Origin: a virus
Lineage: Duplodnaviria; Heunggongvirae; Uroviricota; Caudoviricetes
Reading direction: 5' to 3' (one strand)
Length of the DNA stretch: 37,677 nt
IMG/VR virus record: IMGVR_UViG_2541047910_000002
Position numbers and translations under genes: made by a program. This document shows, one piece after another, positions 259 to 37,677 of this stretch. Within the stretch, counting starts at the first letter, position 1, and each line of letters starts with the position of its first letter. The notes under the pieces were generated by a model that saw nothing but the letters and a program-made list of their open reading frames with translations, was not told the DNA's origin and made no database searches.

Positions 259-287
259 TCGTCTGACAAGCCCTCGCGTTGAGGGCT

Positions 288-665
288 TTATTGATTTTTT
301 CTGTGCTGTGGTTTAAACAAACTACTGATAAATAAGAAACACAATGCCCCCAGCGCACACCAGAACACCGCACTTAATAACCATGCCAACTCTTGCCAGA
401 ATGAGCGCGTCGGTGAAAAAAACAGCCGCATAATGAGCATCGAACAGGGTGCCGCCAGCATTGCGCCAAACAGAGGTTTCAGGACTTCTCTACGATGTGA
501 AAAGAAGCTGGCAACTGCACCAGGAAGAATGAAAAATAGCAAACCGATTTCAGGATGCCCGGCAGCCCGAAAAGCGCCTTTCATGTGCGTCGCCAGAAAA
601 AGACACACCACAATGAAGAGGACAAAACAGCAGATTGCCCCCGCCCAACGTTGTTTATGTTTCAC
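288..665 (-). CDS. ybjM: inner-membrane protein, YbjM-like (host)
   Basis: 125-aa hydrophobic ORF located between grxA and ybjL as in E. coli K-12 gene order; start codon not verified. Confidence 0.55.
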   Translation of the reverse strand: MKHKQRWAGAICCFVLFIVVCLFLATHMKGAFRAAGHPEIGLLFFILPGAVASFFSHRREVLKPLFGAMLAAPCSMLIMRLFFSPTRSFWQELAWLLSAVFWCALGALCFLFISSLFKPQHRKNQ

Positions 666-934
666 TCGTTCCTCCTGACACTGCGTCTATCGAACACATT
701 TTTCGCCAGTGTGGCGTTCAGTAAGATAAAGCCGCTTCGCATTCCATGCTAATATAGGCCAACGCAATTCATATAGCCGTTGATACCTAATGTGATTACA
801 CTAGTAAAATATATTGTTACTTTACTATCTTTTAGGTGCGCTGAATGAATCTGCGCCCTGAATTCTGGTAAAAAACATTATCGTAAATTACCATTTCTTT
901 CAACAGCTTACTAGTAAACAAGAAGTTAGCCTCC

Positions 935-2620
935 GTGAATATAAACGTCGCCGAATTGTTAAATGGGAATTACATTCTGTTATTATTTGTGGTCCTCGCG
1001 CTTGGGCTATGTCTCGGGAAATTACGACTTGGTTCGATCCAACTGGGTAATTCCATTGGCGTTTTAGTCGTATCGCTGTTATTAGGCCAACAACATTTCA
1101 GCATTAACACCGACGCGCTTAATCTTGGCTTTATGCTGTTTATTTTCTGCGTCGGGGTCGAAGCCGGACCGAACTTTTTTTCCATTTTTTTTCGCGATGG
1201 GAAAAATTACCTAATGTTAGCACTGGTGATGGTTGGCAGTGCGCTGGTGATCGCCTTAGGGTTAGGTAAGCTGTTTGGCTGGGATATTGGCCTGACGGCC
1301 GGTATGTTAGCTGGCTCTATGACGTCGACACCGGTTCTGGTCGGTGCTGGCGATACACTGCGTCATTCCGGCATGGAAAGCAGGCAGCTCTCACTGGCAC
1401 TGGATAATCTGAGCCTCGGGTATGCCTTAACCTATTTAATCGGTCTGGTGAGTTTGATTGTTGGTGCGCGTTACTTGCCGAAATTGCAGCATCAGGACTT
1501 ACAGACCAGCGCCCAGCAAATCGCCCGCGAACGTGGCCTGGACACTGATGCCAACCGTAAGGTTTATTTACCGGTGATCCGCGCCTACCGCGTCGGCCCG
1601 GAGCTGGTGGCCTGGACCGACGGCAAAAATCTGCGTGAACTGGGTATTTATCGACAAACTGGCTGCTACATTGAACGTATTCGACGTAACGGGATTCTGG
1701 CGAATCCAGACGGTGATGCTGTGCTACAAATGGGCGATGAAATAGCGTTGGTAGGCTATCCCGACGCCCACGCACGACTCGATCCCAGCTTCCGTAACGG
1801 CAAAGAAGTTTTCGATCGTGACCTTCTCGACATGCGTATCGTCACTGAAGAAGTGGTCGTTAAAAACCATAACGCCGTGGGCAAACGTCTCGCACAACTG
1901 AAGTTGACCGATCACGGTTGCTTCCTTAACCGCGTCATTCGTAGCCAGATTGAGATGCCGATAGATGACAACGTCGTGCTTAACAAAGGTGACGTTTTAC
2001 AAGTCAGCGGCGATGCCCGTCGCGTAAAAACCATCGCCGATCGCATCGGCTTTATCTCGATTCACAGCCAGGTCACTGACTTGCTGGCATTCTGCGCCTT
2101 CTTTGTTATTGGGCTGATGATCGGGATGATCACCTTCCAGTTCAGCACATTCAGTTTCGGCATGGGGAACGCTGCCGGGTTGTTATTCGCCGGAATTATG
2201 CTGGGCTTTATGCGCGCTAACCACCCGACCTTCGGTTACATTCCGCAGGGTGCATTAAGCATGGTGAAAGAGTTCGGCTTAATGGTGTTTATGGCAGGCG
2301 TTGGTCTGAGCGCCGGTAGCGGTATTAATAACGGCCTGGGCGCGATTGGCGGTCAGATGTTGATTGCCGGATTGATTGTCAGTCTTGTGCCAGTGGTTAT
2401 CTGTTTCTTGTTCGGTGCTTATGTATTGCGAATGAACCGCGCACTGTTGTTCGGCGCAATGATGGGCGCACGCACCTGCGCGCCGGCAATGGAGATCATC
2501 AGTGATACAGCTCGCAGTAACATCCCGGCGCTGGGCTATGCGGGCACCTATGCAATCGCCAACGTCCTGCTGACGCTGGCAGGGACAATCATCGTCATGG
2601 TATGGCCAGGATTAGGATAA
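935..2620 (+). CDS. ybjL: putative AAE-family transporter YbjL (host)
   Basis: 561-aa polytopic membrane protein with a central soluble region; GTG start; recognised as YbjL by sequence memory and neighbourhood. Confidence 0.8.
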
Positions 2621-10144: not shown

Positions 10145-10711
10145 TCAGGGAGATTTATTGCTCTTATTTGCCGGAAATTTTCGATAAATGGTAGAAACGC
10201 CTACATCAAAAATCAGTGCAATACGCTGTCTTGATTCTCCGGCCTCGAGTAAACGTCCAATCTGTGCCCACTGTTCAGTGGTCAACTTAGGACGGCGTCC
10301 ACCTACTCTGCCTTTAGCACGAGCTGCAGCCAGCCCTGCCCGGGTACGTTCAACTATCAGTTCGCGTTCCATTTCAGCCAGGGCACCCATGACATGAAAA
10401 AAGAAACGGCCCATTGGGGTACTGGTATCAATACTGTCAGTCAGGCTTCGGAAATTCACACCACGCTGGCGCAACTCTTCTATCAGCGTAACAAGATGCC
10501 GCATACTGCGCCCCAACCTGTCCAGCTTCCAGACAACCAGCGTGTCTCCTGCCAATAGTGTCCTGAGCAGTTTTTTAAGCCCCGGTCTGTCGGACTTAGT
10601 GCCACTGATTTTGTCCTCAAAAATCCGCTCACATCCCGCGCAGTTCAGCGCATTACGTTGCAAATCGGTGTTCTGGTCATTTGTTGACACGCGTACATAG
10701 CCAATAAGCAT
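10145..10711 (-). CDS. serine DNA invertase (Gin/Pin/Hin family)
   Basis: MLIGYVRVSTNDQNTDLQRNAL... with catalytic Ser in YVRVS and C-terminal HTH; closely matches the Gin/Pin sequence from memory; start set at third codon with a GGAG SD 6 nt upstream. Confidence 0.9.
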   Translation of the reverse strand: MLIGYVRVSTNDQNTDLQRNALNCAGCERIFEDKISGTKSDRPGLKKLLRTLLAGDTLVVWKLDRLGRSMRHLVTLIEELRQRGVNFRSLTDSIDTSTPMGRFFFHVMGALAEMERELIVERTRAGLAAARAKGRVGGRRPKLTTEQWAQIGRLLEAGESRQRIALIFDVGVSTIYRKFPANKSNKSP

Positions 10712-10766
10712 GATCATCTCCCTGAATAAAAATAGGGGATGATGCCAGTTAGCCGTAATCGCTGCA

Positions 10767-10792
10767 TTTTCTTAAACGTTGGTTTGGGAGAA
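10767..10792. repeat. invertase crossover site (gix/hix-like), invertase-proximal
   Basis: 26-bp imperfect palindrome ttttcttaaacg-tt-ggtttgggagaa; inner 14 bp (10779-10792) is the exact inverted repeat of 12670-12683. Confidence 0.7.
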
Positions 10793-11152
10793 GCGGCAAA
10801 ACGGGATGTGGGAACAGGGGAAAATCAGATACCGGATATGGCTTCTTTTGCCAGTGGTGATGGATGGATGAAATTACCCAACGGTAAAATCCTGCAATAT
10901 GGTCGAGGTGCGGTTACGCCGACATTATCGACGCAAACAATGAGAATTACATTCAGCATCCCTTTTCCTAAAAAAGTGGACTGCGCCATGCTTACTCATT
11001 CTGGTGATGGTGGTGCACCTTTAGGTGCTGGACGGGGATTCGTGATGACCGCAGAAGGTCCAACATTAACCGGTTTTAATTCCGCTTACAGAACTGCATC
11101 AACCAGTTCCACAGTATCGATGAATTACAGTTGGTGGGCTGTTGGTGAGTAA
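10781..11152 (+). CDS. alternative tail-fibre C-terminal segment (Sv'-like), silent in this orientation
   Basis: open frame begins at the crossover site with GLGE, the same residues that follow the crossover in H; no independent start; in frame with H constant part after inversion. Confidence 0.6.
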   Translation, partial: GLGEAAKRDVGTGENQIPDMASFASGDGWMKLPNGKILQYGRGAVTPTLSTQTMRITFSIPFPKKVDCAMLTHSGDGGAPLGAGRGFVMTAEGPTLTGFNSAYRTASTSSTVSMNYSWWAVGE

Positions 11153-11172
11153 TTTTATTAAGGGTGATTTAT

Positions 11173-11616
11173 ATGAACGAATATGTTTATAGCGCAAGGC
11201 ATAATGCTTTTTTCCCTGTGGATATGATTGATAAATATAAATCAGAGGGATGGGATTTATCAGATGCTAAAGAGGTGAATCAAAATATTATCAGTGAATT
11301 TATGGCTGAACCGCCACAAGGAAAAATCCGTATTGCCGGAGGTGATGGGCAGCCCGCGTGGGCAGATATTCCTCCACCCACGCATGAAGAACTTATTGAA
11401 ATTACTGAATCAGAAAGACAGCTACTAATTAACCAGGCCAACGAATACATGAACAGTAAGCAATGGCCCGGCAAAGCCGCTATTGGTCGTCTGAAAGGTG
11501 ATGAACTGGCGCAATATAATTTGTGGCTGGATTATCTGGACGCACTGGAGCTGATCGATACTTCCGGTGCGCCAGATATTGAATGGCCTACGCCTCCGGC
11601 AGTTCAGGCCAGATGA
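11173..11616 (+). CDS. tail-fibre assembly chaperone (U'-like), alternative orientation
   Basis: about 147 aa downstream of Sv'; C-terminal ...DYLDALELIDTSGAPDIEWP resembles the C-terminus of the converging 11588-12190 gene (...AVLDYIDAVTATDTSTAPDVIWPELP). Confidence 0.7.
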   Translation: MNEYVYSARHNAFFPVDMIDKYKSEGWDLSDAKEVNQNIISEFMAEPPQGKIRIAGGDGQPAWADIPPPTHEELIEITESERQLLINQANEYMNSKQWPGKAAIGRLKGDELAQYNLWLDYLDALELIDTSGAPDIEWPTPPAVQAR

Positions 11617-22173: not shown

Positions 22174-23940
22174 ATGAACACCACACTGACACCCGCAGAT
22201 CTCGATCCCCGTCGGCAGGCCATGCTGCTGTACTTTCAGGGATACCGCGTAGCCCGCATAGCTGAAATGCTGGGCGAGAAAGTTGCAACCGTTCACAGCT
22301 GGAAAAAACGCGACAAGTGGGGTGACTATGGGCCGCTGGATCAGATGCAGCTCACCACCGCCGCACGCTACTGCCAGCTCATCATGAAGGAGCACAAAGA
22401 AGGGAAAGATTTCAAAGAGATTGACCTGCTGGCGCGCCAGTCGGAGCGCCACGCGCGGATCGGCAAGTTTAACAATGGCGGCAACGAAGCCGACTTAAAC
22501 CCAAACGTCGCCAACCGCAACAAAGGCCCACGCCGTCAGCCGGAAAAGAATGTTTTCACCGATGAGCAGATTGAGAAGCTGGAAGAAATCTTCCATTCCT
22601 CCATGTTCAACTACCAGCGCCACTGGTGGGAAGCCGGAAAAACCAACCGCATCCGCAATCTGCTGAAGTCACGCCAGATCGGCGCGACCTTTTACTTTGC
22701 CCGTGAAGCCCTGATTGACGCCCTGCTTACCGGGCGTAACCAGATTTTCCTTTCCGCCAGTAAGGCACAGGCCCACGTCTTTAAGCAGTACATCATCGAC
22801 TTCGCCAAAGAAGTGGAGGTGGAGCTGAAAGGCGATCCGATGGTGCTTCCTAACGGGGCCACGCTTTACTTCCTCGGCACCAATGCCCGCACGGCCCAGA
22901 GTTACCACGGCAACCTGTATCTGGATGAATATTTCTGGATACCGAAATTCCAGGAGCTGCGCAAAGTGGCTTCCGGTATGGCTATTCACAAAAAATGGCG
23001 ACAAACCTATTTTTCCACGCCATCCAGCCTGACACACAGTGCTTATCCGTTCTGGTCCGGTGCGCTGTTCAACCGAGGGCGCAACAAAGCCGATAAGGTG
23101 GACATCGACCTGTCCCACCGCAATCTGGCCCCCGGCCTGCTGTGCGCAGACGGGCAGTACCGCCAGATAGTCACCGTGGAAGATGCGGTGCGCGGCGGCT
23201 GTAACCTGTTCGACCTTGACCAGTTGCGCATGGAGTACAGCCCGGACGAATACCAGAACCTGCTGATGTGCGAGTTTGTGGACGATCTCGCGTCCGTGTT
23301 CCCGCTCAGCGAGCTGCAGGCGTGCATGGTGGACAGCTGGGAAGTCTGGACCGACTTTCATGCACTGGCGCTGCGCCCGTTTGGCTGGCGCGAGGTGTGG
23401 ATCGGTTATGACCCGGCAAAAGGTACGCAGAACGGCGACAGCGCCGGGTGCGTGGTGGTGGCACCGCCAGCCGTGCCGGGCGGTAAGTTCCGCATTCTTG
23501 AGCGTCACCAGTGGCGCGGGATGGACTTCCGCGCCCAGGCTGACGCCATCAAAAAACTGACCGAACAGTACAACGTGACATACATCGGCATCGACTCAAC
23601 TGGCGTCGGCCACGGGGTTTACGAGAACGTGAAAGCATTCTTTCCTGCCGTCCGGGAGTTTGTCTACAACCCCAACGTTAAAAACGCCCTGGTACTCAAG
23701 GCCTACGACATTATCAGCCACCGCCGTCTGGAGTTTGACGCCGGACACACCGACATAGCGCAGTCCTTTATGGCAATCCGTCGCTCCACCACCGCCAGTG
23801 GCAACCGCCCGACCTATGAAGCCAGCCGCAGCGAAGAAGCCAGCCATGCGGATCTGGCCTGGGCAACGATGCACGCACTGTTTAACGAACCGCTGCAAGG
23901 CGAGTCCGCCAATACCAGCAATATTGTGGAGATTTTTTGA
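22174..23940 (+). CDS. P: terminase ATPase (large) subunit P
   Basis: 588 aa; recognised as P2 gpP-like. Confidence 0.9.
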   Translation: MNTTLTPADLDPRRQAMLLYFQGYRVARIAEMLGEKVATVHSWKKRDKWGDYGPLDQMQLTTAARYCQLIMKEHKEGKDFKEIDLLARQSERHARIGKFNNGGNEADLNPNVANRNKGPRRQPEKNVFTDEQIEKLEEIFHSSMFNYQRHWWEAGKTNRIRNLLKSRQIGATFYFAREALIDALLTGRNQIFLSASKAQAHVFKQYIIDFAKEVEVELKGDPMVLPNGATLYFLGTNARTAQSYHGNLYLDEYFWIPKFQELRKVASGMAIHKKWRQTYFSTPSSLTHSAYPFWSGALFNRGRNKADKVDIDLSHRNLAPGLLCADGQYRQIVTVEDAVRGGCNLFDLDQLRMEYSPDEYQNLLMCEFVDDLASVFPLSELQACMVDSWEVWTDFHALALRPFGWREVWIGYDPAKGTQNGDSAGCVVVAPPAVPGGKFRILERHQWRGMDFRAQADAIKKLTEQYNVTYIGIDSTGVGHGVYENVKAFFPAVREFVYNPNVKNALVLKAYDIISHRRLEFDAGHTDIAQSFMAIRRSTTASGNRPTYEASRSEEASHADLAWATMHALFNEPLQGESANTSNIVEIF

Positions 23941-24965
23941 TGGGAAAGAGTAAGAAGAACCGCGCTGCGGCGACGAAACAGATCCAGCTTAAAAGTCAAA
24001 CTACAGCCGAAGCATTCAGCTTCGGCGATCCCGTTCCTGTTCTGGACCGCCGAGAACTGCTGGACTATGTGGAATGCGTACAGACAGATCGCTGGTATGA
24101 GCCGCCAGTAAGCTTTGACGGACTGGCGCGCACCTTCCGCGCCGCCGTGCATCACAGTTCACCAATTGCGGTGAAATGCAACATTCTGACCAGTACCTAC
24201 ATCCCTCACCCGCTGCTCAGCCAGCAGGCTTTTTCACGTTTTGTGCAGGACTATCTGGTATTTGGTAACGCCTACCTGGAGAAACGCACGAACCGCTTCG
24301 GTGAAGTTATCGCCCTTGAGCCTGCTCTGGCAAAATACACCCGACGCGGGTTAGACCTGGATACCTACTGGTTTGTGCAATACGGTATGACAACCCAGCC
24401 GTATCAGTTCACGAAAGGCAGCATTTTTCATCTGATGGAACCGGACATTAACCAGGAGATCTACGGCCTGCCCGGCTATCTTTCTGCCATTCCGTCCGCC
24501 CTGCTCAATGAGTCCGCCACGCTGTTCCGCCGCAAGTATTACATTAACGGTAGTCATGCAGGCTTCATCATGTACATGACCGATGCTGCGCAGAACCAGG
24601 AGGACGTGAACAACCTCCGCAATGCAATGAAAAGTGCCAAAGGTCCGGGTAACTTCCGCAACCTGTTTATGTACTCGCCTAACGGCAAAAAGGACGGGCT
24701 TCAGATTATCCCGTTGTCAGAGGTGGCGGCGAAGGATGAGTTTTTGAATATCAAGAACGTGAGCCGCGATGACATGATGGCTGCGCACCGCGTGCCGCCG
24801 CAAATGATGGGGATTATGCCTAATAATGTTGGAGGGTTTGGGGATGTGGAGAAGGCCGCAAATGTGTTTGTGCGCAATGAACTTTTGCCATTACAGAAAC
24901 GCATGGAGGAGTTAAACCATTGGCTGGGTGAGAAAGTTATTGCATTTTCATCCTATTGTTTATGA
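23937..24965 (+). CDS. Q: portal protein Q
   Basis: 342 aa, overlaps P stop; recognised as P2 gpQ-like. Confidence 0.9.
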   Translation: MMGKSKKNRAAATKQIQLKSQTTAEAFSFGDPVPVLDRRELLDYVECVQTDRWYEPPVSFDGLARTFRAAVHHSSPIAVKCNILTSTYIPHPLLSQQAFSRFVQDYLVFGNAYLEKRTNRFGEVIALEPALAKYTRRGLDLDTYWFVQYGMTTQPYQFTKGSIFHLMEPDINQEIYGLPGYLSAIPSALLNESATLFRRKYYINGSHAGFIMYMTDAAQNQEDVNNLRNAMKSAKGPGNFRNLFMYSPNGKKDGLQIIPLSEVAAKDEFLNIKNVSRDDMMAAHRVPPQMMGIMPNNVGGFGDVEKAANVFVRNELLPLQKRMEELNHWLGEKVIAFSSYCL

Positions 24966-25009: not shown

Positions 25010-25822
25010 TTATTTTACTCTAAAGGCATCATCGGCTTTATGTGGTATAGGAGCATAACGCTCGGTACTTACTCGATGTAGCACCGCAAATATATTCAAA
25101 GGTGAACCATCCTTTAACCTAAGAGAAACATACATTGGCATCGTTGGTGTTAACCCCCGATTTAGGCCAACAGTGGCACCACTTACTTTCATACCATTTT
25201 CTAAAGATGCATTTTCAATAAACCCCTGAGTGAATGTGCTTTCTCCATTGACCATAACAACAACATCATCATGCTTAATTGTATTATCCATAATCATCAT
25301 AAAATCAGCAATTGGTTCTAAAAAATCCATTGCTGATAATTTCACTATCTTACCCCCATCACCATCCTTAATATCATAGGAGAGGTTTGAATACTTCTCA
25401 GGATTAGGAATATACGTATTTTGTTGATTAATGACATCTATAATTTGTCTTATTGCCACATCGATCCCATACGAATAAAGATCAATATATAGCGTTTGAG
25501 TAAGCAGAGCAGGCAAGGATATATTCTGGCAACGTATTGGTATAAATTTACACTTCCCGGACGATGCCTTAATTAAAGCATTTTGCCATTCCATTTTTAC
25601 CATGTTACTTGCCAAACTATTTTCTGTGACAAAAAAGAAAAAGAACGATACATTCTCCATTCCTAAATTCATCTTGTCAATAATACCCTCTCCGGGTTGG
25701 ATAGACCAAGAATCGTAGAATACGTTATCACGCCCATAAACATCTGCTAGTTTTTCCGCTATAACACTTACAAACCTTTTGTCACGGTGATTATGACTTA
25801 GAAAGATCATAGCATGCCCCAT
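25010..25822 (-). CDS. TIR-domain protein with an uncharacterised C-terminal domain (accessory gene)
   Basis: N-terminal about 130 aa shows TIR-like pattern (MIFLSHNHRDKRFV ... VTENSLASNMVKMEW with candidate catalytic Glu); C-terminal about 140 aa unassigned; A+T-rich; possible true start at 25810 (MIFLSH, GGGG SD). Confidence 0.6.
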   Translation of the reverse strand: MGHAMIFLSHNHRDKRFVSVIAEKLADVYGRDNVFYDSWSIQPGEGIIDKMNLGMENVSFFFFFVTENSLASNMVKMEWQNALIKASSGKCKFIPIRCQNISLPALLTQTLYIDLYSYGIDVAIRQIIDVINQQNTYIPNPEKYSNLSYDIKDGDGGKIVKLSAMDFLEPIADFMMIMDNTIKHDDVVVMVNGESTFTQGFIENASLENGMKVSGATVGLNRGLTPTMPMYVSLRLKDGSPLNIFAVLHRVSTERYAPIPHKADDAFRVK

Positions 25823-25891
25823 TAGAAATTAATGTGTAAGATCTGCGTAGAGAGTCACCGACAGTGTACCAATAATAATCTTCTGCGCGCA

Positions 25892-25910
25892 ATCGTATCC
25901 CCGCCACGCC
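25892..25910 (-). other. putative cos cohesive-end site
   Basis: minus strand reads GGCGTGGCGGGGATACGAT followed by TGCGCGC, resembling the P2/186 19-nt cohesive end as I recall it; lies between Q and A where cos is expected. Confidence 0.4.
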
Positions 25911-26401
25911 TGCCCGCTTTATGCAGTGGTTTTCATGCACCTGCATGACATGAGTAAAAGCTCGCCAGTTCTAGCAGGTCTCTGCAAAAACGATCCTCAA
26001 TCGATCATGCGATTTCATGCAGCATAGTCATGCACAGCCAAGGGAAGCGTAAATCCGTATCTGAATGACCGCTGAAAAGCGAATCATACGGGTTTACAAA
26101 GATGAAAGTCCGCTGTGAGTGAAAAGCGGACATTAACTCCTTGCTTTTTGGCACTGAAACAGAGCGAAGCAGCATGTAAGCTGTTACGGATGCGCAGCGG
26201 TGACAACAGCAACTTCAATTAAGGAAATGCTCTTGGTTTTCGGGGAGACTTTTCGAGCGATATATGATAATGAAGACACTAAAAAACTGAACAGAAACGT
26301 CTAGCTCAATATGACTTCTGTTCAGGTATAAATGGTCTATTTATATATTCTCTCTTCAAATCCTTACTGAATACTCTCGAAGATGGCTAACGCCCCCTCT
26401 C

Positions 26402-27364
26402 TTAACCTTCATAGTTCATGCCGCCAAGATACGAAGGTATCATCATTAATGATTTAACCCTTTCTTTTTCTTTTTCGGTGAGATGACGACATGCAAATGG
26501 GTAAATATTGATCAAAAATGTCTTGAGTTCGTCAAATGCCTCATCTGAATATAGGGTCCCAGATCTTAACTCATTCATTATTGTCATGACCCATTTTATA
26601 AACACAGTTGGCATCATTACATCAGCTATATCTTCCCAGCCATCAATAAGGCCATTGTTTGTTTGTTTTCTAACATACTGCCGGAGTGCTTGGTCGCAGT
26701 TGCCTCGACACGTCCAAAAAATATGTTCATTATACTCTGGTTCTTTTTCGTAGTCGGTGCGGATTCTTTGCCATATAGTGATAATTCCCTTGTCGTCTTG
26801 AGACAGAAGCTCTTTCTTGCAAACTTTGCATTTTAAGCTAGGTTCATCGGAAAATATTCTTGCGGGTTTGGGGTTTTCTGTTTTCCACTCAGATAACGAC
26901 TTTGGGAAGTACCTTTCGGCAATTTCCAATCCTCTGGAAGAGTGTAAAAGTTCCCTCTCTATTTTCTCTTTATCGAAAACCTGAAATTCAATTCGTCCTT
27001 TCAACCCGTCAAGTATTCCAGACAGACCTGCACTAGCAAGAGTTGAATAGAACCCGATAAATCCTTGGCAGTTATTCGCTATTACTCGATCAGTAATATT
27101 TGCATCATCTCCTGGATTAACTGAATTTCCACTATGAGCTTTATGCTTACAGCTTACCAACCAACGGATAATTGTTTCCCCGCCGACACCAGTCCTTTTT
27201 TCTTCGGCTATAATATCAACCCCACCGTCAGCCCCTCTATCTGGGTCAGATATAATTTTATATCCCAGAAAAGCTAAGAAGTCGCGAGAAAAAAGTTCAA
27301 ATGTGTCTTGCAGCCCTGTTGCTTTATGAGCCTCTGGTATTTCTTTGAAGTCTAATACTGGCAT
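26402..27364 (-). CDS. Mrr-like PD-(D/E)xK nuclease-domain protein with Cys-rich C-terminal domain (accessory gene)
   Basis: N-terminal FLGYKIISDPDRGADGGVDIIAEEK ... WLVSCKHK resembles the Mrr_cat restriction-endonuclease core; C-terminal half has CKVCKK and CRGNCDQ Cys pairs; A+T-rich. Confidence 0.5.
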   Translation of the reverse strand: MPVLDFKEIPEAHKATGLQDTFELFSRDFLAFLGYKIISDPDRGADGGVDIIAEEKRTGVGGETIIRWLVSCKHKAHSGNSVNPGDDANITDRVIANNCQGFIGFYSTLASAGLSGILDGLKGRIEFQVFDKEKIERELLHSSRGLEIAERYFPKSLSEWKTENPKPARIFSDEPSLKCKVCKKELLSQDDKGIITIWQRIRTDYEKEPEYNEHIFWTCRGNCDQALRQYVRKQTNNGLIDGWEDIADVMMPTVFIKWVMTIMNELRSGTLYSDEAFDELKTFLINIYPFACRHLTEKEKERVKSLMMIPSYLGGMNYEG

Positions 27365-27646
27365 TTTTATGGGGTCCTTAAGTTGTTAATGCTTATTGGG
27401 TGGAAAGAACCGTATTTAAACACGGAGTTTCTGCCTCTGTAAATTTAATATGTAGAACACTCATCACTTTTTATAACTGACAATAGGATATTTAGACGTC
27501 TGTTTTTGGCACAAAGCAGACAAAAAACTGAAGGCCCACTGTGAACGAGAAACGGACTATGATACTAACAAGAGAGCATCACTGTTAATATTTGAACAAT
27601 TAATGCTCAGCTATTTATCTATTTTTACAATTAGAAAGGACTTGTA

Positions 27647-28057
27647 ATGGTTACGGTTGATGAATTAAAGATGAAATATCCGGACGCGAATGCCTGGCAA
27701 ATGGGCGACAGCCCTGAACTGGCTAACGAGCTTGCAGCGCTTATCAAAAAAGGAATTAAAACGGCCTCCTGCGGCTCTTATGCCTCTTACCAGAAGGAAG
27801 AGTTTGCCCCAAGGATTGGGAGCTATAACATCATCCTTAACGGCCAAGATGTACCGGTATGCGTGACCCGGCTGGTGTCGATGCGACTGGTGCGTTTTTG
27901 TGATGTTACTGCCGAGTTCGCTCGCAAGGAAGGTGAAGGCGATTTGAGTCTTGAATATTGGCAGAGAGAGCATCAACGATTTTTTACATGTGAAGGTTAC
28001 TTTTCTGATGATATGGAGCTGATTATGGAAGAGTTTGAAGTTGTTGATGTTTTGTAA
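27647..28057 (+). CDS. ASCH-domain protein
   Basis: 136 aa; pattern ...ELIKKGIKTASCG...FTCEGYFSD... typical of ASCH/PUA-like fold; AAAGGA SD 8 nt upstream. Confidence 0.6.
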   Translation: MVTVDELKMKYPDANAWQMGDSPELANELAALIKKGIKTASCGSYASYQKEEFAPRIGSYNIILNGQDVPVCVTRLVSMRLVRFCDVTAEFARKEGEGDLSLEYWQREHQRFFTCEGYFSDDMELIMEEFEVVDVL

Positions 28058-28209
28058 TCCAACAACGTTTATGCATGTCAGATTAGAATAACTGAGTACC
28101 GTTTTATCACGTGAAATTTGTATTAATGCCCGCCTCTGGCACAAAGCGAACGAGCACTTATCAAAATGCCCACCCACCTTACGCCTCGTTTCACTCGTTG
28201 CCAAAACTA

Positions 28210-28239
28210 GCCCCCATCAGAATGAATCCTCTTGGGGGC
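28210..28239. terminator. hairpin between convergent ASCH gene and tum/dinI-like gene
   Basis: gccccca (28210-28216) / tgggggc (28233-28239) stem; the minus strand has TAGTTTTGG after the stem. Confidence 0.45.
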
Positions 28240-28247
28240 AACGTTTC

Positions 28248-28481
28248 TTAATGCAGCCAGCTGTCGTCTTCCCACACCTTCTGCATAATTTTCATCACTT
28301 GTTTTCTTTCTTCGTCCAGTTGCAATCCGGTAAGTTCCACACCGTTAGAGCTACCTTTGCGGATACGAATTACCGTTTTGGGATACAGGGGGCGCAGATT
28401 GCGGTAAAGCTCGGATTCAAGGGCGTCCAGGGTAGACTGGCTAATCTTCTGCTCTTTATCGATCATTATTTCAATGCGCAT
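28248..28481 (-). CDS. DinI-family protein (Tum-like antirepressor C-terminal module)
   Basis: 77 aa, MRIEIMIDKEQKISQSTLDALESELYRNLRPLYP...VWEDDSWLH resembles E. coli DinI; GAGGTGA SD overlapping the upstream gene stop. Confidence 0.75.
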   Translation of the reverse strand: MRIEIMIDKEQKISQSTLDALESELYRNLRPLYPKTVIRIRKGSSNGVELTGLQLDEERKQVMKIMQKVWEDDSWLH

Positions 28482-28492
28482 AAAAAGTCACC

Positions 28493-28681
28493 TCAACTGA
28501 TGACATCCATTGAGCGGTTGTATTCGTGGGTTCTGATTTTTGCCATGAGTTCATCTGTTAGTTCAGAAACCCACTGCAAAGCCAGCCCCTTCTCTTCATC
28601 ACTACACTCACTAGTCGCTACAAGCTTAAGAAAAAAATCAATGCGCTGGAGCTTCAAAGACTCCAAAAAATAGTCCTGCAT
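28493..28681 (-). CDS. small protein, first gene of the LexA-controlled operon (possible Tum N-terminal part)
   Basis: 62 aa with AGGAGG SD; translationally coupled to the DinI-like gene; LexA box about 45 bp upstream. Confidence 0.55.
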   Translation of the reverse strand: MQDYFLESLKLQRIDFFLKLVATSECSDEEKGLALQWVSELTDELMAKIRTHEYNRSMDVIS

Positions 28682-28722
28682 CTTTCCTCCTATGACACCA
28701 AAGCAATACTGTATACATAACC

Positions 28723-28833: not shown

Positions 28834-31248
28834 TTAATACAGGTTCCGCCACTTATCATCTTCCTGCAAACGCTGGTTCCGATAGAAGATACGCAGGCCT
28901 GCTCCTGACGGAATACTGCCGCCGCGAAGGAGTAAATCGACCTCTTTCTCGCTACCATCAAATCCTCTGGACTTCAGCTCATAGACGAGCTGCAGTCGCT
29001 GATGGTCTGTAATTCGCTGTTTGTAGTCTTTACGCCGTTTCGGTTTAACCAGGCGTAACCTTGCAGCCAGTTCCCGGCGCTCTTTTTTGCTCATACTGTG
29101 CAGGTAATCGTGCAACTCCTTGTCATCCATGCGGGTAATGTCCGTTCTGATGTCCCCATCAGCTGATTTATCTTTCTCCTGTTGGTTCAAATTTTCAGCA
29201 AGGGGACAGTTATTGCCACGAGTCCAAGGGGCGCAAGCGCCCTGGTCGGCTGCCGCCTCCTGAACGTCAACGGCTTTACGAACCATTTTCCACTTCACTG
29301 CATGGGTGCAGATCTTGCCCTCTGCAATGGGTGACCAGATGCCATAAATACGAATGCCGTGATCGCCATAGGCGGTCGGCTCTTCGTTGATTTCATAAGC
29401 GGTTCTGATGAGGTGATATTTACGGGGAACCAGTACGCCGCCCTGCTTCATGATGTAGGTGGCAAAACAACCAGCATCAGCAGCAGCCAGAATGGCATCA
29501 AGACGCGGGTTATCCAGTACCGGCGCACCTGCTTTTTTGTCACCCTGTTGCCTTGCCGCCTGACCAGCCAGCAAGCGAAGTTCACGGTAAGCCTGACGCC
29601 CCGGAATACCAAAGAAGCGGAATTGCTGAACACGATGCAGAGACGCCCAGGCATTCACGTATTCAGCGTTATCACGCAGAGATTTACCCGTTTCCTTGCT
29701 GATCTCGCCAGCCAGACCACGACCGTCAATGTTCTTACTGATATATTTCGCGATGTAGCTTGTCGGCGTTCCTTTGCGCGGGTTAATCAACTCAGACTTA
29801 AAGCGCGGCCCAGTGTTATTGCCCAGCTCCTCGCGGTCTTCACGGATGGCAAACTTACGCAGTAATGCAGTGATGGCACGGCGGTCTTTTTTGCGCATGA
29901 AACACAACAGGTGCCAGTGAACTGTGCCATCATGATGCGGCTCAGCCACCCGCACGCCATACCAGCGCAACCCGGCTTTGTGCATCGCCTTACGAAATGC
30001 AGCAAACATGCCGACCAGATAATCGCTGCTTTGTCTTACCGTCGCGTTTGTCCAGGTCGGGTTTGGTCTGCCGTTATTTAGCGTGGAATGGAAACGCGAC
30101 GGACAGGTGATAGTGTAGAAAACGGCGCAGTCACCGCGCATTTCCGCAATAAGCTCCAGACCTTTAACACAGGCCATCATCTCATTGCGGCGATGCGCAG
30201 GGTTGCTGCTGCTGGCGTTTACCACCTCCTCCATGTCCAGCGTGTCGCCGTCTTCGTTCACCAGTTCATGAGAACGGAAAAACTCCAGCGACTTACGGCG
30301 CTGCTCACGTTTATGCATCACGGCTTCATAGCTGACATAAGGAGATGCTTTTTTGCTGACCAGGCAAACAGCGCGCAACTGCTCTTCCCGCCATTCGCAA
30401 CGCATCTTCCATAATTTCCGATACCACCAGTCGGCGCACAACATACGCGCCAGCGAACCCGGAATGAGTTCATAGGGCACGGGTTTACGGCGGTTTCTTT
30501 TCCGACGGAGTTGCTCAAACGCAGGTGGGATGACATCCAGACGCAGGGTTTCCGCTGCCACCTTTTCCCATGTCTTGCGGATTTCTTCTGGCTTAACGTC
30601 ATCGGTGGCATACAAATCACCACAAGCTGCATCAAGGCACATACTCATATGCGCAGCTACCAGGGTGGACAGGCGTTTCACCTGATCCTGACTCATTTCA
30701 GGCAGGATCAGCAGGCCGTCCAGCCCTTCATGGCTTGCCATAAAGCGAAAAGATGCAGATAGCTGACTGTCGCGTACATGCTCCAGTCGTTCCAGACATG
30801 GCTTAATCGTCTCACGTAAATAGCGGGAATAAGCCTTTGGCCTGCCCAGGCTGCTGAAGTATTCAATACGTTGCATCAGCGGCTTGCTGATATGGGAAGG
30901 CAGGGCGTTGACGTCCGCCAGAATGACCATGTCTGAATTAAAACGCTGCTGCTCATGCGCCAGCTTTGCCCGGCTAATGAGCTTATCCTGCTCCATTTCG
31001 CGCTGGACAGGATCACGTGATTCATTAAAGAAATAACGCTCCCAGACCTGATCACTCAGTGCCTCGCGGCGCAACTGTTCCTGCTCGTTATCGGCAGCGT
31101 ACAGAGTGATCAGGTTTGAAAGCGTAGAAACCGGCGCAACTTCCGCCGGGTCCAGATAAGGGTTAATGGCCTTTTTCGGGCTGTTCCATGAGAATGCTGC
31201 GGCAGCCTCGTTAAAGCCGCAGCAGTTGTTCATATCGGCATGACTCAT
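28834..31248 (-). CDS. A: rolling-circle replication initiator A
   Basis: 804 aa with HxH (VHWHLL) and YIAKYISK active-site tyrosine motifs typical of P2 gpA; ATG overlaps the dam stop. Confidence 0.9.
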
Positions 31249-34153: not shown

Positions 34154-34203
34154 GATGCAACATCTCCTATTGGCTTGTGGTGAGCCTGTAGTAATCGTGA
34201 CAA

Positions 34204-34219
34204 GTACCCAATTGGGTAC
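34204..34219. promoter_or_regulatory. candidate operator in the apl/cI switch region
   Basis: perfect 16-bp palindrome GTACCCAATTGGGTAC 30 bp upstream of the cI ATG; half-site AGTACCCAA recurs at 34261-34269. Confidence 0.45.
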
Positions 34220-34248
34220 AAAACTGATACTAGGATCGCAAAAGAGAT

Positions 34249-34845
34249 ATGTCAACATCAAAGTACCCAAGTGAGATCAAAATAAATCCCAATAAAGGTG
34301 GTAAGGCTGCGATTGAGCGATTAGTCGAAGCCTATGGCTTTACGACACGACAGGCTTTAGCTGATCACTTGGAAGTATCAAAAAGCACACTAGCGAACAG
34401 GTATTTGCGGGATACATTTCCTGCTGACTGGATAATCCAATGTGCTCTTGAAACAGGAACCTCCCTCAAATGGTTAACTACCGGACAAGGCCTTAAGCAA
34501 AGCTCGCTGACAGCAGCTACAGAAGAGCTTGTTAAGTTTCGCCTTGCCGCAGGCAAAATGATTGAAGACGGTTCATATGTCTTCGATTCATCATTTCTTC
34601 CTGCAAACCTTTCATCACCAATTGTTGTTCAGGATGGACTCGTCACATACATTTGTGATCAAAAATTTTCTGAAGTACTTGATGGAAACTGGTTAATCAA
34701 TATCGACGGAACCTATTCCATTCGAAAAATCACAAGGCTTCCTAAAGGAATGATTAAAATTACAACAGCAGAGAATAGCTTTGAATGTGCATTTTCTGAT
34801 ATTGAAGTGGTTGCTTGTATAAGAAGTACAATAGTCTCGAATTAA
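34249..34845 (+). CDS. cI: CI-like immunity repressor
   Basis: 198 aa, N-terminal HTH (TTRQALADHLEVSKSTLANRY), divergent from apl/cII. Confidence 0.75.
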   Translation: MSTSKYPSEIKINPNKGGKAAIERLVEAYGFTTRQALADHLEVSKSTLANRYLRDTFPADWIIQCALETGTSLKWLTTGQGLKQSSLTAATEELVKFRLAAGKMIEDGSYVFDSSFLPANLSSPIVVQDGLVTYICDQKFSEVLDGNWLINIDGTYSIRKITRLPKGMIKITTAENSFECAFSDIEVVACIRSTIVSN

Positions 34846-34865
34846 TATAGTAAAAGGATTTTAAA

Positions 34866-36542
34866 ATGAATTCATTTGCCATCGTTATACTCTTATTAGC
34901 ATTTCTCGCCCCTGTTCTAGCTGTAATATTATTTAAACAAAGTAAAAAACACAAAGCGGCTATAGATAACCTGACAGCTAACAACATAGCCCTTTCTAAC
35001 CAACTGATTGAAAATCAAGAAAAACTAGCACAGACCGTACGAGAATTATCAGAGCTTGAAGGGCGAGCAGCACCATTGTGGCAATACGAAGAATTGCACA
35101 GCGCAGTAATGGATGCAGAGAATAAGATAAAAAATGCGGACTCAATAGCCAAGCAAAAAATAGATGAAGCCCAAATTAAGGCGGCTAAAACAGTAAACGA
35201 AGCAAATTATCAAGCTCAGATGACAATAAGCAACGCTAATAGCGAAGCTATAGCAATCACCAAAGACGCTCGCGATGCACGCCTGAAAGCCAAAGAACGT
35301 CTTGATAATGCTAATAATAAAGCAAATGAGCTAATCTCAAATGCTAATGACAATGCAGTAAAAATTATTTCTGATGCAGAAGAAAGAGCAAAGGAGATTG
35401 CTGGTTCAGCATATGAAGCTAAAGAGTTTGCAGAAAAATATGAAGCAGTTGCAAAATCAATGAAAAATAAAATTGAAGGTTATGGTGATGAATGGATCAT
35501 CCCTAACCGTAGTGTACTTGATGAGCTGGCAGAAAATTATGAATTTACAGATGCAGGCAAGGAATTACAAAAAGCCAGAGAGTTAACCAAATCATTAATA
35601 AAAACTAATAAAGCTGCTTCGTGTGATTATGTTGAGCAAAACAGGCGTAATACTGCCATAAACTTTGTTTTGGATGCCTTCAATGGAAGAGTTGACAGTA
35701 TTTTATCAAAAGTCAAACACAACAATTTTGGAAAACTTTCCCAAGAAATAAAAGATGCATTTCAACTAGTAAATTACAATGGCTCTGCCTTTAGGTCCGC
35801 AAAAATAAGTGACATCTATCTTCAGGCAAGACTCAACGAGCTAAAATGGGGTGTAGCAGTTAATGAAATTATGCTCGAAGAAAAAGAAGAGCAAAGAAGG
35901 ATTAAAGAACAGCTTCGTGAAGAGGAAAGAGCTCGTAGAGAATATGAAAAAGCGATAAAAGAAGCTGAAAAAGAAGAAAAAGCTATTCAGCAAGCTATAA
36001 ATAAAGCAACGAAAGAACTTATGCTTGCAAATGAAGAACAACGCTTAGCTTTAGAGCAAAAAATAGCTGAACTACAGTTAAAATATGAAGAAGCTGAAGC
36101 TAAAAATCAACGAGCTATTTCTATGGCTCAACAAACCAGATCAGGCCACGTCTATATCATTAGTAATATTGGTTCATTTGGCGAAGATGTATATAAAATT
36201 GGAATGACACGCCGCCTTGAACCACTTGATCGTGTTCGTGAACTCGGAGATGCTAGTGTTCCTTTTTCGTTCGATGTTCATGCGATGATTTATAGTGATG
36301 ATGCACCATCATTAGAAAACCATCTGCATAAAGTTTTCAACGAAAAGCAGGTCAATAAAATTAACTCACGAAAAGAGTTTTTTAACGTAAATTTAAAAGA
36401 AATCAAATCAGTTATTGAAGACATGAACATCAACGCCCACTGGACAATGTTTGCAGAGGCGAAAGAATATAGAGAGTCTCTATCTATTGAGCAGGAGCGC
36501 AAAGCAGCCACTTCCGCCAACGATGAACTACATGTTGCTTAG
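34866..36542 (+). CDS. membrane-anchored coiled-coil protein with C-terminal T5orf172/GIY-YIG-like domain (DUF4041-like architecture), accessory gene
   Basis: N-terminal TM helix, long Ala/Lys/Glu-rich coiled-coil, C-terminal GHVYIISN...YKIGMTRR...VPFSFDVHAMIYSDDAPSLENHLHKVF...RKEFFNV; AAAGGA SD; markedly A+T-rich; inserted between cI and int. Confidence 0.6.
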   Translation: MNSFAIVILLLAFLAPVLAVILFKQSKKHKAAIDNLTANNIALSNQLIENQEKLAQTVRELSELEGRAAPLWQYEELHSAVMDAENKIKNADSIAKQKIDEAQIKAAKTVNEANYQAQMTISNANSEAIAITKDARDARLKAKERLDNANNKANELISNANDNAVKIISDAEERAKEIAGSAYEAKEFAEKYEAVAKSMKNKIEGYGDEWIIPNRSVLDELAENYEFTDAGKELQKARELTKSLIKTNKAASCDYVEQNRRNTAINFVLDAFNGRVDSILSKVKHNNFGKLSQEIKDAFQLVNYNGSAFRSAKISDIYLQARLNELKWGVAVNEIMLEEKEEQRRIKEQLREEERARREYEKAIKEAEKEEKAIQQAINKATKELMLANEEQRLALEQKIAELQLKYEEAEAKNQRAISMAQQTRSGHVYIISNIGSFGEDVYKIGMTRRLEPLDRVRELGDASVPFSFDVHAMIYSDDAPSLENHLHKVFNEKQVNKINSRKEFFNVNLKEIKSVIEDMNINAHWTMFAEAKEYRESLSIEQERKAATSANDELHVA

Positions 36543-36600
36543 CAATGTATGTTTCATAGTAATCACACATTGATTACTGGTTACATATACAGTTAAATTT

Positions 36601-36624
36601 AGCCCTCTGATATGAGGGCTTTTT
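36601..36624 (+). terminator. hairpin terminator immediately upstream of int
   Basis: agccctc (36601-36607) / gagggct (36614-36620) stem then tttt, directly abutting the int ATG at 36625. Confidence 0.5.
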
Positions 36625-37677
36625 ATGGCAGTACGAAAACTAACAACAGGGAAATGGCTTTGCGAATGTTACCCCGCCGGACGAAGTGGGCGTCGTGTGC
36701 GTAAACAATTCGCTACCAAAGGCGAAGCACTGGCTTTTGAGCGCCACACGATGGAAGAAACCGAAGCAAAGCCCTGGCTGGGTGAATCAGTGGATCGTCG
36801 AACACTGAAAGACGTGGTTGAGCTATGGTTCAAACTACATGGTAAATCTCTGACAGCTGGGCAGCATGTCTATGACAAATTGCTGTTGATGGTTGACGCT
36901 CTGGGCAATCCTCTTGCAACCGATCTCACCTCTAAAATGTTTGCCCACTATCGAGATAAACGCCTGACAGGCGAGATCTACTTCAGCGAGAAATGGAAGA
37001 AAGGAGCAAGCCCGGTCACCATTAACCTGGAGCAAAGCTATCTAAGTAGTGTTTTTAGCGAACTATCCCGTCTGGGCGAATGGTCGTATCCGAACCCACT
37101 GGAGAACATGCGAAAATTCACCATCGCAGAAAAAGAGATGGCATGGCTTACCCATGAGCAGATTGTTGAATTGCTGGCTGATTGCAAACGTCAGGACCCA
37201 ATTCTGGCACTGGTAGTTAAGATATGCTTAAGCACAGGCGCACGCTGGCGTGAAGCCGTAAATCTTACCCGCTCACAGGTGACCAAATACCGAATTACCT
37301 TTGTCAGAACGAAGGGGAAGAAAAACAGAAGCATCCCTATCAGTAAAGAGCTTTACGAAGAGATCATGGCGCTTGATGGGTTCAATTTCTTCACAGACTG
37401 CTATTTTCAATTTTTATCCGTGATGGAAAAAACGTCTATCGTGCTCCCTCGCGGTCAACTCACACACGTTCTGCGCCATACGTTTGCGGCGCACTTCATG
37501 ATGTCGGGTGGAAACATTCTGGCCTTACAAAAAATTCTCGGACACCACGATATAAAAATGACTATGCGTTACGCACATCTGGCACCGGATCATCTAGAAA
37601 CGGCGCTCCGTTTCAATCCTCTGGCAACGCTGCCAAGTGGCGACAAAGTGGCGGCAGCGGTTGGCATTACCCCGTAA
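36625..37677 (+). CDS. int: tyrosine integrase (P2 Int family)
   Basis: 350 aa; RHTFAAHFMMSGGNILALQKILGHHDIKMTMRYAHL catalytic region; N-terminus similar to P2 Int; last codons span the att repeat. Confidence 0.9.
   Translation: MAVRKLTTGKWLCECYPAGRSGRRVRKQFATKGEALAFERHTMEETEAKPWLGESVDRRTLKDVVELWFKLHGKSLTAGQHVYDKLLLMVDALGNPLATDLTSKMFAHYRDKRLTGEIYFSEKWKKGASPVTINLEQSYLSSVFSELSRLGEWSYPNPLENMRKFTIAEKEMAWLTHEQIVELLADCKRQDPILALVVKICLSTGARWREAVNLTRSQVTKYRITFVRTKGKKNRSIPISKELYEEIMALDGFNFFTDCYFQFLSVMEKTSIVLPRGQLTHVLRHTFAAHFMMSGGNILALQKILGHHDIKMTMRYAHLAPDHLETALRFNPLATLPSGDKVAAAVGITP
37638..37659. repeat. putative att core, int-side junction
   Basis: tggcgacaaagtggcggcagcg, matching 2835-2855 with one mismatch (A/G). 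Confidence 0.6.

Follow-up and report, generated by a model that had tools for sequence, protein, structure and literature searches.

A SNIPE-family (PD-λ-1) nuclease as a probable direct-defence cargo of the cI-int operon in a 186-like E. coli prophage

The window, a 37,677-nucleotide stretch of viral DNA (Caudoviricetes; IMG/VR record IMGVR_UViG_2541047910_000002), carries between the cI repressor and integrase genes a real 558-aa open reading frame (34866..36542, + strand, start ATG), whose product is very probably, at roughly 0.85, a direct-defence nuclease of the SNIPE (PD-λ-1) family and the cargo of the lysogenic cI-int operon in a 186-like (Peduoviridae) prophage. The open reading frame, PADLOC, PHROG, BLASTP and the RefSeq name together identify a SNIPE homologue, predicted to be a membrane-anchored GIY-YIG nuclease. 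The system is already known, as a named and mechanistically studied family: PD-λ-1 was discovered experimentally by Vassallo et al. in 2022 (PMC9519451) and the mechanism of SNIPE was described by Saxton et al. in 2025 (bioRxiv 10.1101/2025.11.03.685801). A sequence-only reading of the locus had proposed an exclusion or defence moron, and it was right, the role fitting this experimentally characterised family (PADLOC E=3e-120); the finding itself is an ordinary one.

The family assignment comprises (i) a match to the PADLOC PD-Lambda-1 model (3.1e-120) pairing aa 106-550 with model positions 36-481 of 491; (ii) a match to PHROG 1847 (1e-132); (iii) a BLASTP alignment (E=2e-76) of aa 265-541, 51% identical, with a reference-type 500-aa E. 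coli SNIPE; and (iv) the name 'SNIPE associated domain-containing protein' that RefSeq gives to a strain N61 gene of 99.9% identity. The 500-aa comparison protein gives a full-length match to the PD-Lambda-1 model (1.9e-198) and agrees with all the published SNIPE residues that were compared, E223, N250, L253, W257, E264, K305, I308, T319, and E414; its equation with RCP76574.1 is based on equal length and these nine residues, that accession being absent among the cluster members listed. Both are single-gene, prophage-borne systems that match the PADLOC model and share an N-terminal transmembrane helix, a helical region, DUF4041, a helical hairpin, and a GIY-YIG nuclease with the catalytic glutamate and all motif residues kept. 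The host elements differ, a 186-like myovirus prophage with the gene in the cI-int slot here, and a lambdoid prophage with the gene adjoining ren in the one reference-type copy examined.

The GIY-YIG-type nuclease domain (T5orf172/MUG113; aa 427-520, 36144..36425, + strand) is delineated by Pfam, motif residues and AF2. The Pfam matches to T5orf172 (aa 427-520, 3.2e-17) and MUG113 (aa 443-520, 3.7e-20) lie above the gathering threshold, and that to DUF4041 (aa 267-322, 3.1e-12) scores 46.6 bits where 27 would suffice, so that the domain searches confirm both the DUF4041 and the GIY-YIG-like assignments first made from the sequence alone, and do not reject the nuclease. The motif residues Y430, Y443, R449/R450, R456, H472, E484 (codon 36315-36317), and N497/N500 are all shared with reference SNIPE and do not vary among 30 homologues; E484 aligns with the catalytic E414, whose replacement in E414A abolishes SNIPE function (bioRxiv 10.1101/2025.11.03.685801). 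The β-β-α-β-α order of secondary structures in the AF2 model fits a GIY-YIG fold, and the top globular Foldseek matches are to the GIY-YIG nuclease Slx1, albeit weak (prob 0.8, E 0.35); sequence and profile searches found no relatives in the PDB. The full-length AF2 model, built from a shallow alignment of 30 sequences that are 82-100% identical, has a mean pLDDT of 54 and was used for secondary structure only.

Upstream of the nuclease, the DUF4041 core (PF13250; aa 267-322, 35664..35831, + strand; Pfam, conservation and AF2) belongs to a family named 'SNIPE' in the newer Pfam matches precomputed for the contig collection, and in SNIPE this domain binds DNA (bioRxiv 10.1101/2025.11.03.685801). 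The conserved globular domain extends upstream of the core to about aa 175-200, the region of aa ~175-330 being conserved across 325 representatives, and an AF2 model of aa 201-558 gives pLDDT values of 85-93 across the DUF4041 domain. A Glu/Lys/Ala-rich helical hairpin (aa 326-424, 35841..36137, + strand; E 24%, A 14%, K 13%) joins DUF4041 to the nuclease and aligns with the 'downstream alpha helix' of reference SNIPE; the AF2 helices span model residues 116-187 and 190-225, corresponding to aa 316-387 and 390-425, with pLDDT 75-87.

At the N-terminus, the transmembrane anchor that had been read from the sequence is borne out as a single hydrophobic segment, aa 4-23 (FAIVILLLAFLAPVLAVILF; codons 34875..34934, + strand), followed by the basic stretch KQSKKHK, with a Kyte-Doolittle 19-residue mean of 3.16 where every other stretch of the protein scores at most 1.6. 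The 17 residues after the helix contain four K/R and one D/E, and by the positive-inside rule the nuclease is predicted to be cytoplasmic, a topology equal to that shown experimentally for SNIPE together with its membrane localisation (bioRxiv 10.1101/2025.11.03.685801); about two thirds of SNIPE homologues carry such a helix. Between the anchor and DUF4041 lies an Ala/Lys/Glu/Asn-rich helical stalk (aa 85-200, 35118..35465, + strand), composed of about ten degenerate 11-residue (hendecad) repeats and one 14-residue unit, with a lag-11 autocorrelation of 0.94 against -0.36 ± 0.19 and 0 of 2000 shuffles as high. Of the coiled coil with NAN/KAK motifs described earlier, the repetitive character stands as this 11-residue periodicity, whereas the literal motifs are scarce (NAN three times, KAK once). 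Tandem Repeats Finder detects no DNA tandem repeat beneath the periodicity, and the protein repeats are thus old or convergent and not the product of a recent duplication.

Taken with the published behaviour of SNIPE, this architecture suggests a course of action in which (1) the gene would be transcribed with cI in the lysogen; (2) the protein would be anchored in the inner membrane by its only transmembrane helix, at the N-terminus, with the stalk, DUF4041 and nuclease facing the cytoplasm; (3) by homology, the membrane tether would hold a non-specific GIY-YIG nuclease off the chromosome; (4) again by homology, on injection by a superinfecting phage, most likely a siphovirus, DUF4041 would contact the DNA together with the injection channel or tape-measure protein, the nuclease would cleave the entering genome and the cell would survive, the resident myovirus prophage being spared, also on induction; and (5) the hendecad stalk and substituted DUF4041 surface residues might direct the protein to another partner or phage range than the λ/ManYZ-tuned reference. 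For SNIPE itself, 32P-labelled λ DNA is cleaved during injection, the protein lies in proximity to ManYZ and the tape-measure protein, and prophage induction is unaffected (bioRxiv 10.1101/2025.11.03.685801).

The alternative that best survives, though improbable, is an abortive-infection or toxin-type effector, in which the nuclease would be freed or activated on infection and degrade host and phage DNA alike, killing the cell. Such an outcome is possible in principle, since SNIPE lacking its transmembrane helix (ΔTM) is highly toxic and cuts the chromosome (bioRxiv 10.1101/2025.11.03.685801); furthermore, the N-terminal region here is unlike that of the reference, so regulation could differ, and abortive action is debated for membrane-associated nuclease systems such as Zorya. 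However, defence by the closest characterised relative is direct and non-abortive, with cells surviving high MOI (bioRxiv 10.1101/2025.11.03.685801), the present protein keeps both the anchor and the DUF4041-nuclease module, and domain and profile searches detect no protease or release motif. Other systems likewise act at the inner membrane during genome injection, such as HK97 gp15, Zorya, and Kiwa, but they are unrelated to the 558-aa protein in sequence and domains: HK97 gp15, for which dependence on the tape-measure protein is known, as in the SNIPE-type model, blocks injection without a nuclease, whereas Zorya and Kiwa each comprise several genes and respond to perturbation of the envelope.

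The gene is flanked by (i) a 198-aa cI repressor of the 186 type with HTH and C-terminal domains (34249..34845, + strand; Phage_CI_repr 8e-32, Phage_CI_C 3.5e-27), whose counterpart in a sister prophage shares 55% identity with it; and (ii) a 350-aa tyrosine integrase (36625..37677, + strand; Int_N 3e-32, Phage_integrase 7e-22). The flank seen in identical prophages places the element next to host rcdA-ybjJ. The claim that int closely follows the repressor gene in P2/186 phages agrees with phage 186, where cI and int abut with one base in common and form the lysogenic operon driven from pL. Here the cI stop codon (34843-34845) lies 20 nt upstream of the cargo ATG, and a Shine-Dalgarno sequence read as AAAGGA (34853..34858, + strand) stands 7 nt before it, as the earlier account of spacing and ribosome-binding site had it. 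Both genes lie on the + strand and no terminator is predicted between them; this arrangement, the short gap and the 186 layout suggest that the cargo gene is co-transcribed with cI in the lysogen. A scan for consensus promoters gave none on the + strand for either gene, and we make no promoter claim since a relaxed scan yields weak candidates only, including an internal promoter-like site at 34802-34832.

Lambda rexAB, co-transcribed with cI, and P2 old are lysogen-expressed exclusion genes. The present gene shares with them a location in or beside the repressor operon, from which production in the lysogen is predicted, and heterologous phages as targets; the Rex and Old proteins, in contrast, are unrelated to it and act after infection in an abortive or toxic manner, whereas SNIPE-type proteins cut at entry and spare the cell.

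The segment between the cargo stop codon and int (36543..36624, + strand) is a conserved int leader, with a promoter-like site and a hairpin, defined by breakpoints, a six-locus alignment and the fold z-score; homology to sister prophages restarts directly after the stop codon. The relaxed promoter scan reads the promoter-like site as TTGATT-18-TAAATT here and TTGACA-17-AAAAAT in relatives. The hairpin, AGCCCTC-TGATAT-GAGGGCT (36601-36620), has directly behind it TTTTT, which leads into the ATG of int (36625), and draws a terminator-like call, the surrounding RNA folding at -21.2 kcal/mol (z = -3.55); it is kept throughout the six-locus alignment with changed stem and loop sequences, and its 3' arm GAGGG is the Shine-Dalgarno sequence of int. 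The hairpin described before int by the sequence-only reading is present, but as part of a leader that is conserved whatever the cargo, and because the 3' arm doubles as the int Shine-Dalgarno within that leader, the hairpin may control int instead of terminating the cargo transcript.

This position, in the lysogenic operon and directly upstream of the int leader, is what might commend a role in the prophage's own life cycle, namely the exclusion of P2/186-like phages or the modulation of int in place of an anti-siphovirus function, the more so as some P2-hotspot systems also restrict P2-like phages. Such a role nevertheless appears slightly less probable still than abortive action: reference SNIPE is active against siphoviruses only and restricted no tested myovirus (bioRxiv 10.1101/2025.11.03.685801), and leader and hairpin do not change with the occupant of the slot, be it SNIPE, Old, a KAP NTPase or YdcA, which argues that int control is independent of the SNIPE homologue.

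The defence reading is further consistent with what else occupies the slot. Beside an identical 350-aa integrase stand the SNIPE homologue, P2 Old (PADLOC 5.6e-234), the KAP NTPase PDC-S20 (2.4e-171), or nothing but a 63-aa YdcA ORF; given these alternatives, E. coli 186-like prophages have in the cI-int slot a defence-cargo hotspot with conserved flanking anchors. N44, MB19, CX12, ECCWS199, and Klebsiella phage 4LV2017 are further instances of the slot, which in 4LV2017 holds an unknown 349-aa protein. The cI-SNIPE-int arrangement occurs in 163 of the 1135 E. coli genomes with the same int. Among 5426 complete E. coli genomes, 165 carry full-length copies of the gene (94-100% DNA identity), and its exact sequence is present on at least 1000 contigs. 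Published counterparts are old/tin, the P2-like hotspot adjoining cos, and, in K139-like P2-related phages of Vibrio, a hotspot between cI and integrase, both from Rousset et al. 2022 (PMC9122126), and hotspots #1 and #2 of Vassallo et al. 2022 (PMC9519451). Like the P2-like hotspots, the present one is a short variable locus between conserved anchors, here cI and int, with fast turnover of defence genes; it differs in that the published cI-int case concerns Vibrionaceae phages and the published E. coli hotspots lie at other positions.

In composition, the cargo gene (GC 0.369, GC3 0.272) is A+T-rich against a window GC of 0.509, the replication and tail genes reaching 0.53-0.57. The striking A+T-richness ascribed to an insert holds, although the tract begins already within cI (~34550) and stops at ~36600 in the GC profile. 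The 3' half of cI, from ~34500-34550, falls within this variable A+T-rich segment. Homology to relatives breaks at 34200-34501 on the left and 36543-36563 on the right. In the E. coli lineage at hand the left recombination boundary lies within or at cI, so the cargo is swapped jointly with the C-terminal half of cI, which could couple immunity type to defence repertoire.

A gene exactly at a mosaic breakpoint, with foreign composition, might also be a selfish, homing-endonuclease-like T5orf172/GIY-YIG mobile gene lodged between cI and int without a defence role, T5orf172 domains being found in phage homing endonucleases at recombination boundaries (PMC10448857). We reject this reading as highly improbable: the protein has a transmembrane anchor, a 400-aa stalk and DUF4041, matches a validated defence family at full length, and is kept as an intact, highly conserved 558-aa protein across Enterobacteriaceae (homologues ~83-85% identical between genera), while elsewhere the slot is filled by defence genes (Old, PDC-S20) and not left as an endonuclease-free empty site with a recognisable target. 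The structural or cell-cycle coiled-coil protein of the deposited annotations (GenBank phage records and JGI names such as 'chromosome segregation ATPase', 'V-type ATPase subunit H' and DivIVA-like) is the least credible reading, and as an SMC/ATPase is rejected, because its basis in matches to DivIVA/Wag31, SMC and ATP synthase b/E stalks lies in low-complexity helical sequence far under curated cut-offs (22 bits where 260 is required, for example, and SMC_prok_A 15.7 bits against 729), a motif search finds no Walker A or B motif in the 558-aa protein, and its C-terminus is a nuclease domain.

In being built of 11-residue repeats the stalk is like those of ATP synthase b or DivIVA; its similarity to these and to V-ATPase stalks in searches is sub-threshold only.

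As a discovery the SNIPE-family assignment is modest, the family dating from 2022 and the mechanism from 2025, with PADLOC, Pfam PF13250 'SNIPE' and RefSeq PGAP already labelling the exact protein. It does set right the database labels 'chromosome segregation ATPase' and 'V-ATPase subunit H', which mislead, and it documents a cI-int hotspot in E. coli 186-like prophages that could be mined for new systems.

One departure from reference SNIPE is the N-terminal stalk, which is unrelated and longer: BLASTP finds no similarity between aa 1-264, a region longer by ~70 aa, and the reference N-terminus, and autocorrelation reveals no 11-residue periodicity in the latter. As the N-terminal region is highly variable among accepted SNIPE homologues (bioRxiv 10.1101/2025.11.03.685801), it is not a criterion of family membership. 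In the reference it is also the part proposed to associate with ManYZ. Several positions aligned to the reference's tape-measure-linked residues are substituted (E223→S292, W257→K327, N250→Q320, K305→Q375, T319→N389). We tentatively raise, as a possibility with the odds against it, that the 558-aa subfamily is a functionally distinct SNIPE variant redirected to another group of phages or another route of injection, without dependence on ManYZ. This very common natural variant, with its different N-terminal adapter, suits a test of the idea in the SNIPE paper that the adapter determines specificity. Among 62 long homologues, DUF4041 is present in 57 and the nuclease in 30, and these counts give no evidence that the N-terminal module travels with other effectors as a portable adapter outside the family. 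K327 sits at the position where W257R raised the defence of reference SNIPE (bioRxiv 10.1101/2025.11.03.685801).

The 558-aa protein encoded between cI and int is a member of SNIPE/PD-λ-1, a defence family that already has a name, a characterised mechanism and automatic annotation, matching PD-Lambda-1 of the PADLOC library with E=3.1e-120. The sequence-only reading, which had seen in it an exclusion or defence gene, is supported by this family match and by the intact domains and catalytic residues. PD-λ-1 was recovered by functional selection from the E. coli pangenome (ECOR26, RCP76574.1, 1503 nt, DUF4041 and T5orf172) and renamed SNIPE on later detailed characterisation, which describes (i) a protein that spans the inner membrane once, its DUF4041 and GIY-YIG domains lying in the cytoplasm; (ii) loss of defence in E414A; (iii) toxicity and nucleoid binding once the TM helix is removed; (iv) DNA binding promoted by DUF4041; (v) degradation of 32P-labelled λ DNA during injection, not after; (vi) proximity to ManYZ and the λ tape-measure protein; and (vii) protection against siphoviruses, not against myoviruses or podoviruses (bioRxiv 10.1101/2025.11.03.685801).

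The comparison relies on an E. coli protein encoded in a lambdoid prophage (L002); at 500 aa it equals the reference SNIPE in length, and it preserves the published SNIPE residues E223, N250, L253, W257, E264, K305, I308, T319 and E414 and matches the PADLOC PD-Lambda-1 model end to end (1.9e-198). Over aa 265-541 the window protein and this comparison protein share 51% identity (BLASTP, E=2e-76), whereas aa 1-264 display no detectable BLASTP similarity, the global identity being 39%. Catalytic position E414 corresponds to E484 in the window protein, and Y430, Y443, R449/450, R456, H472 and N497/500 (window numbering) are common to both proteins and invariant among 30 close homologues.

The domain calls made from sequence are confirmed. 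Pfam places DUF4041 at aa 267-322, T5orf172 at aa 427-520 and MUG113 at aa 443-520, each above the gathering cut-off, and the N-terminal TM anchor is a single hydrophobic helix (aa 4-23), the sole hydropathy peak in the protein, followed by KQSKKHK, a segment that predicts an outward N-terminus and a cytoplasmic remainder. The anticipated NAN/KAK repeats are scarce as literal motifs (NAN three times, KAK once), but the region does show a strong 11-residue periodicity: aa 85-200, rich in Ala, Lys, Glu and Asn, give a lag-11 autocorrelation of 0.94 versus -0.36 ± 0.19 for shuffled sequences, with 0 of 2000 shuffles as high, and no tandem repeat was found beneath it at the DNA level. The AF2 model of aa 201-558, built from a diverse alignment (mean pLDDT 81), comprises a globular α-helical domain, an extended helical hairpin and, at the C-terminus, a β-β-α-β-α domain; the full-length protein yields a poor model, and PDB sequence searches return no match. 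No Walker motifs occur in the protein, and the names under which it is deposited, 'chromosome segregation ATPase' or 'V-type ATPase subunit H', are unsupported.

A search with aa 1-264 against 1.84 billion representatives retrieves 325 relatives. Among the 62 long ones scanned (alignment A4 of N-terminal homologues, P0152-P0297), 57 contain DUF4041 and only 30 a detectable T5orf172/MUG113; the stalk is therefore family-bound and not a portable module. The other long relatives may be incomplete sequences, or may pair DUF4041 with different C-terminal effectors. Thioredoxin-like, NHL or TM2 domains occur in single proteins of this set.

For the SNIPE family, experiments have shown that the protein is tethered to the membrane, that defence depends on the nuclease and that incoming DNA is cleaved. 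Judged by its sequence, the window ORF is intact and widely conserved, with all domains and catalytic residues present. The gene would be expressed from the lysogenic operon and its product would act against siphoviruses; its partner or phage range may differ from that of the reference SNIPE, because the N-terminal stalk is different and substitutions occur at five residues aligned with tape-measure-linked positions of the reference (S292, Q320, K327, Q375 and N389). A siphovirus-specific weapon that spares resident DNA, carried by a myovirus prophage, is a coherent arrangement.

The ORF call places the gene at 34866-36542 on the + strand with an ATG start, as first read, between a 186-type cI repressor (34249-34845; Phage_CI_repr and Phage_CI_C, Pfam) and a tyrosine integrase (36625-37677; Pfam). 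The cI stop lies 20 nt from the ATG, with AAAGGA 7 nt 5' of it. That the gene is an insertion is correct, since cI and int overlap by one base in phage 186 itself. Its A+T-rich composition is equally borne out (GC 0.369 and GC3 0.272, versus 0.509 for the window and 0.53-0.57 for replication and tail genes), the A+T-rich tract extending from ~34550 to ~36600 in the GC profile.

The hairpin reported immediately before int exists (36601-36620; 7 bp, G+C-rich, followed by T5 running into the int start codon), but it does not belong to the inserted gene. It is retained in all six loci compared (the window, L004-L007 and L009) with any cargo, stem and loop sequences varying while pairing is kept, and its 3' arm is the int Shine-Dalgarno sequence; it is thus a feature of the int leader. 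In the six-locus alignment this conserved leader (36543-36624) comprises a promoter-like site just upstream of the hairpin (TTGATT-18-TAAATT in the window, TTGACA-17-AAAAAT in relatives), the hairpin and the T-run into the ATG. The hairpin could serve as a terminator that shields int from transcripts of cI and the cargo, act as a translational operator, or do both.

The cI-int interval is a defence hotspot. The integrase module occurs in 1135 complete E. coli genomes and the cI-SNIPE-int arrangement in only 163. Beside an identical or closely related integrase, the slot houses (i) a full-length P2 Old homologue (L019:2658-4427; PADLOC 5.6e-234); (ii) KAP P-loop NTPases (L015:3090-4421, L005:3550-5001), for which matches to PADLOC candidate PDC-S20 score 2.4e-171 and 4e-82; (iii) a 349-aa protein of Klebsiella phage 4LV2017 without Pfam or PADLOC match (L004:2053-3102); or (iv) a 63-aa YdcA-family ORF alone, the commonest minimal state (L009:3699-3890). 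A cI/integrase hotspot was previously reported in Vibrio K139-like P2-related phages (Rousset et al. 2022, PMC9122126), and that of the window is of the kind already described. Homology to sister prophages restarts at 36543-36563, immediately 3' of the SNIPE stop codon, and on the left stops at 34200-34501, at or within cI. Against several sister prophages the DNA match breaks off at 34501, midway through cI: the HTH half is 82-86% identical in DNA, the stretch coding for the C-terminal half (34502-34845) has diverged, and overall protein identity is 55%. The C-terminal domain of cI thus seems to be exchanged together with the cargo gene, as a single block.

The exact 558-aa sequence occurs on at least 1000 contigs, and full-length copies (94-100% DNA identity) in 165 of 5426 complete E. 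coli genomes; homologues ~83-85% identical are found in Klebsiella, Citrobacter, Salmonella, Enterobacter and others. Deposited phage vB_EcoM-813R9 carries an identical locus and Klebsiella phage KP12 a 95% copy. The current RefSeq pipeline names the 99.9% identical gene of strain N61 'SNIPE associated domain-containing protein', and PF13250 carries the precomputed Pfam label 'SNIPE' in the contig collection. Two damaged copies also turned up: at L010:2793-4417 a 110-aa truncated cI precedes a 426-aa truncated SNIPE call, and in another genome (NZ_CP116094.1) an IS4-like ISVsa5 element breaks the gene.

A second A+T-rich island (25010-28700, GC 0.36-0.44) is flanked by a replication endonuclease gene (28834-31248, -) and a 342-aa ORF (23937-24965, +); if the structural genes start at the latter, the island occupies the classical P2 old/tin hotspot position. 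It encodes a TIR-domain protein (25010-25822, -; Pfam TIR_2, 1.2e-22), a Mrr_cat-like protein (26402-27364, -; 4.7e-6), an ASCH-domain protein (27647-28057, +; 1.3e-22) and a 140-aa ORF without match. PADLOC places no island gene in a known system, returning weak TIR matches only. These genes are candidate defence cargo, and the island may be more novel than the SNIPE homologue. Another variable slot lies between int and host gene rcdA, on the attachment-site side, holding a DUF2971 protein in strain MB19 (L006:5299-6051, -; PADLOC candidate PDC-S31, 3e-23) and a Panacea-domain protein with a hypothetical protein in strain CX12 (L007:5246-6474, +).

A serine invertase (10145-10717, -; Resolvase and HTH_7) adjoins a tail-fibre C-terminal module (10739-11152, +), itself beside a tail-fibre assembly gene (11164-11616, +); the stretch 10145-11616 resembles an invertible host-range segment of the Cin/Gin type. 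Host DNA makes up the left end of the window (1-2620), with ybjM (288-665, -) and an Asp-Al_Ex/TrkA_C permease (935-2620, +); at its int end the same prophage borders host genes rcdA-ybjJ-ybjI.
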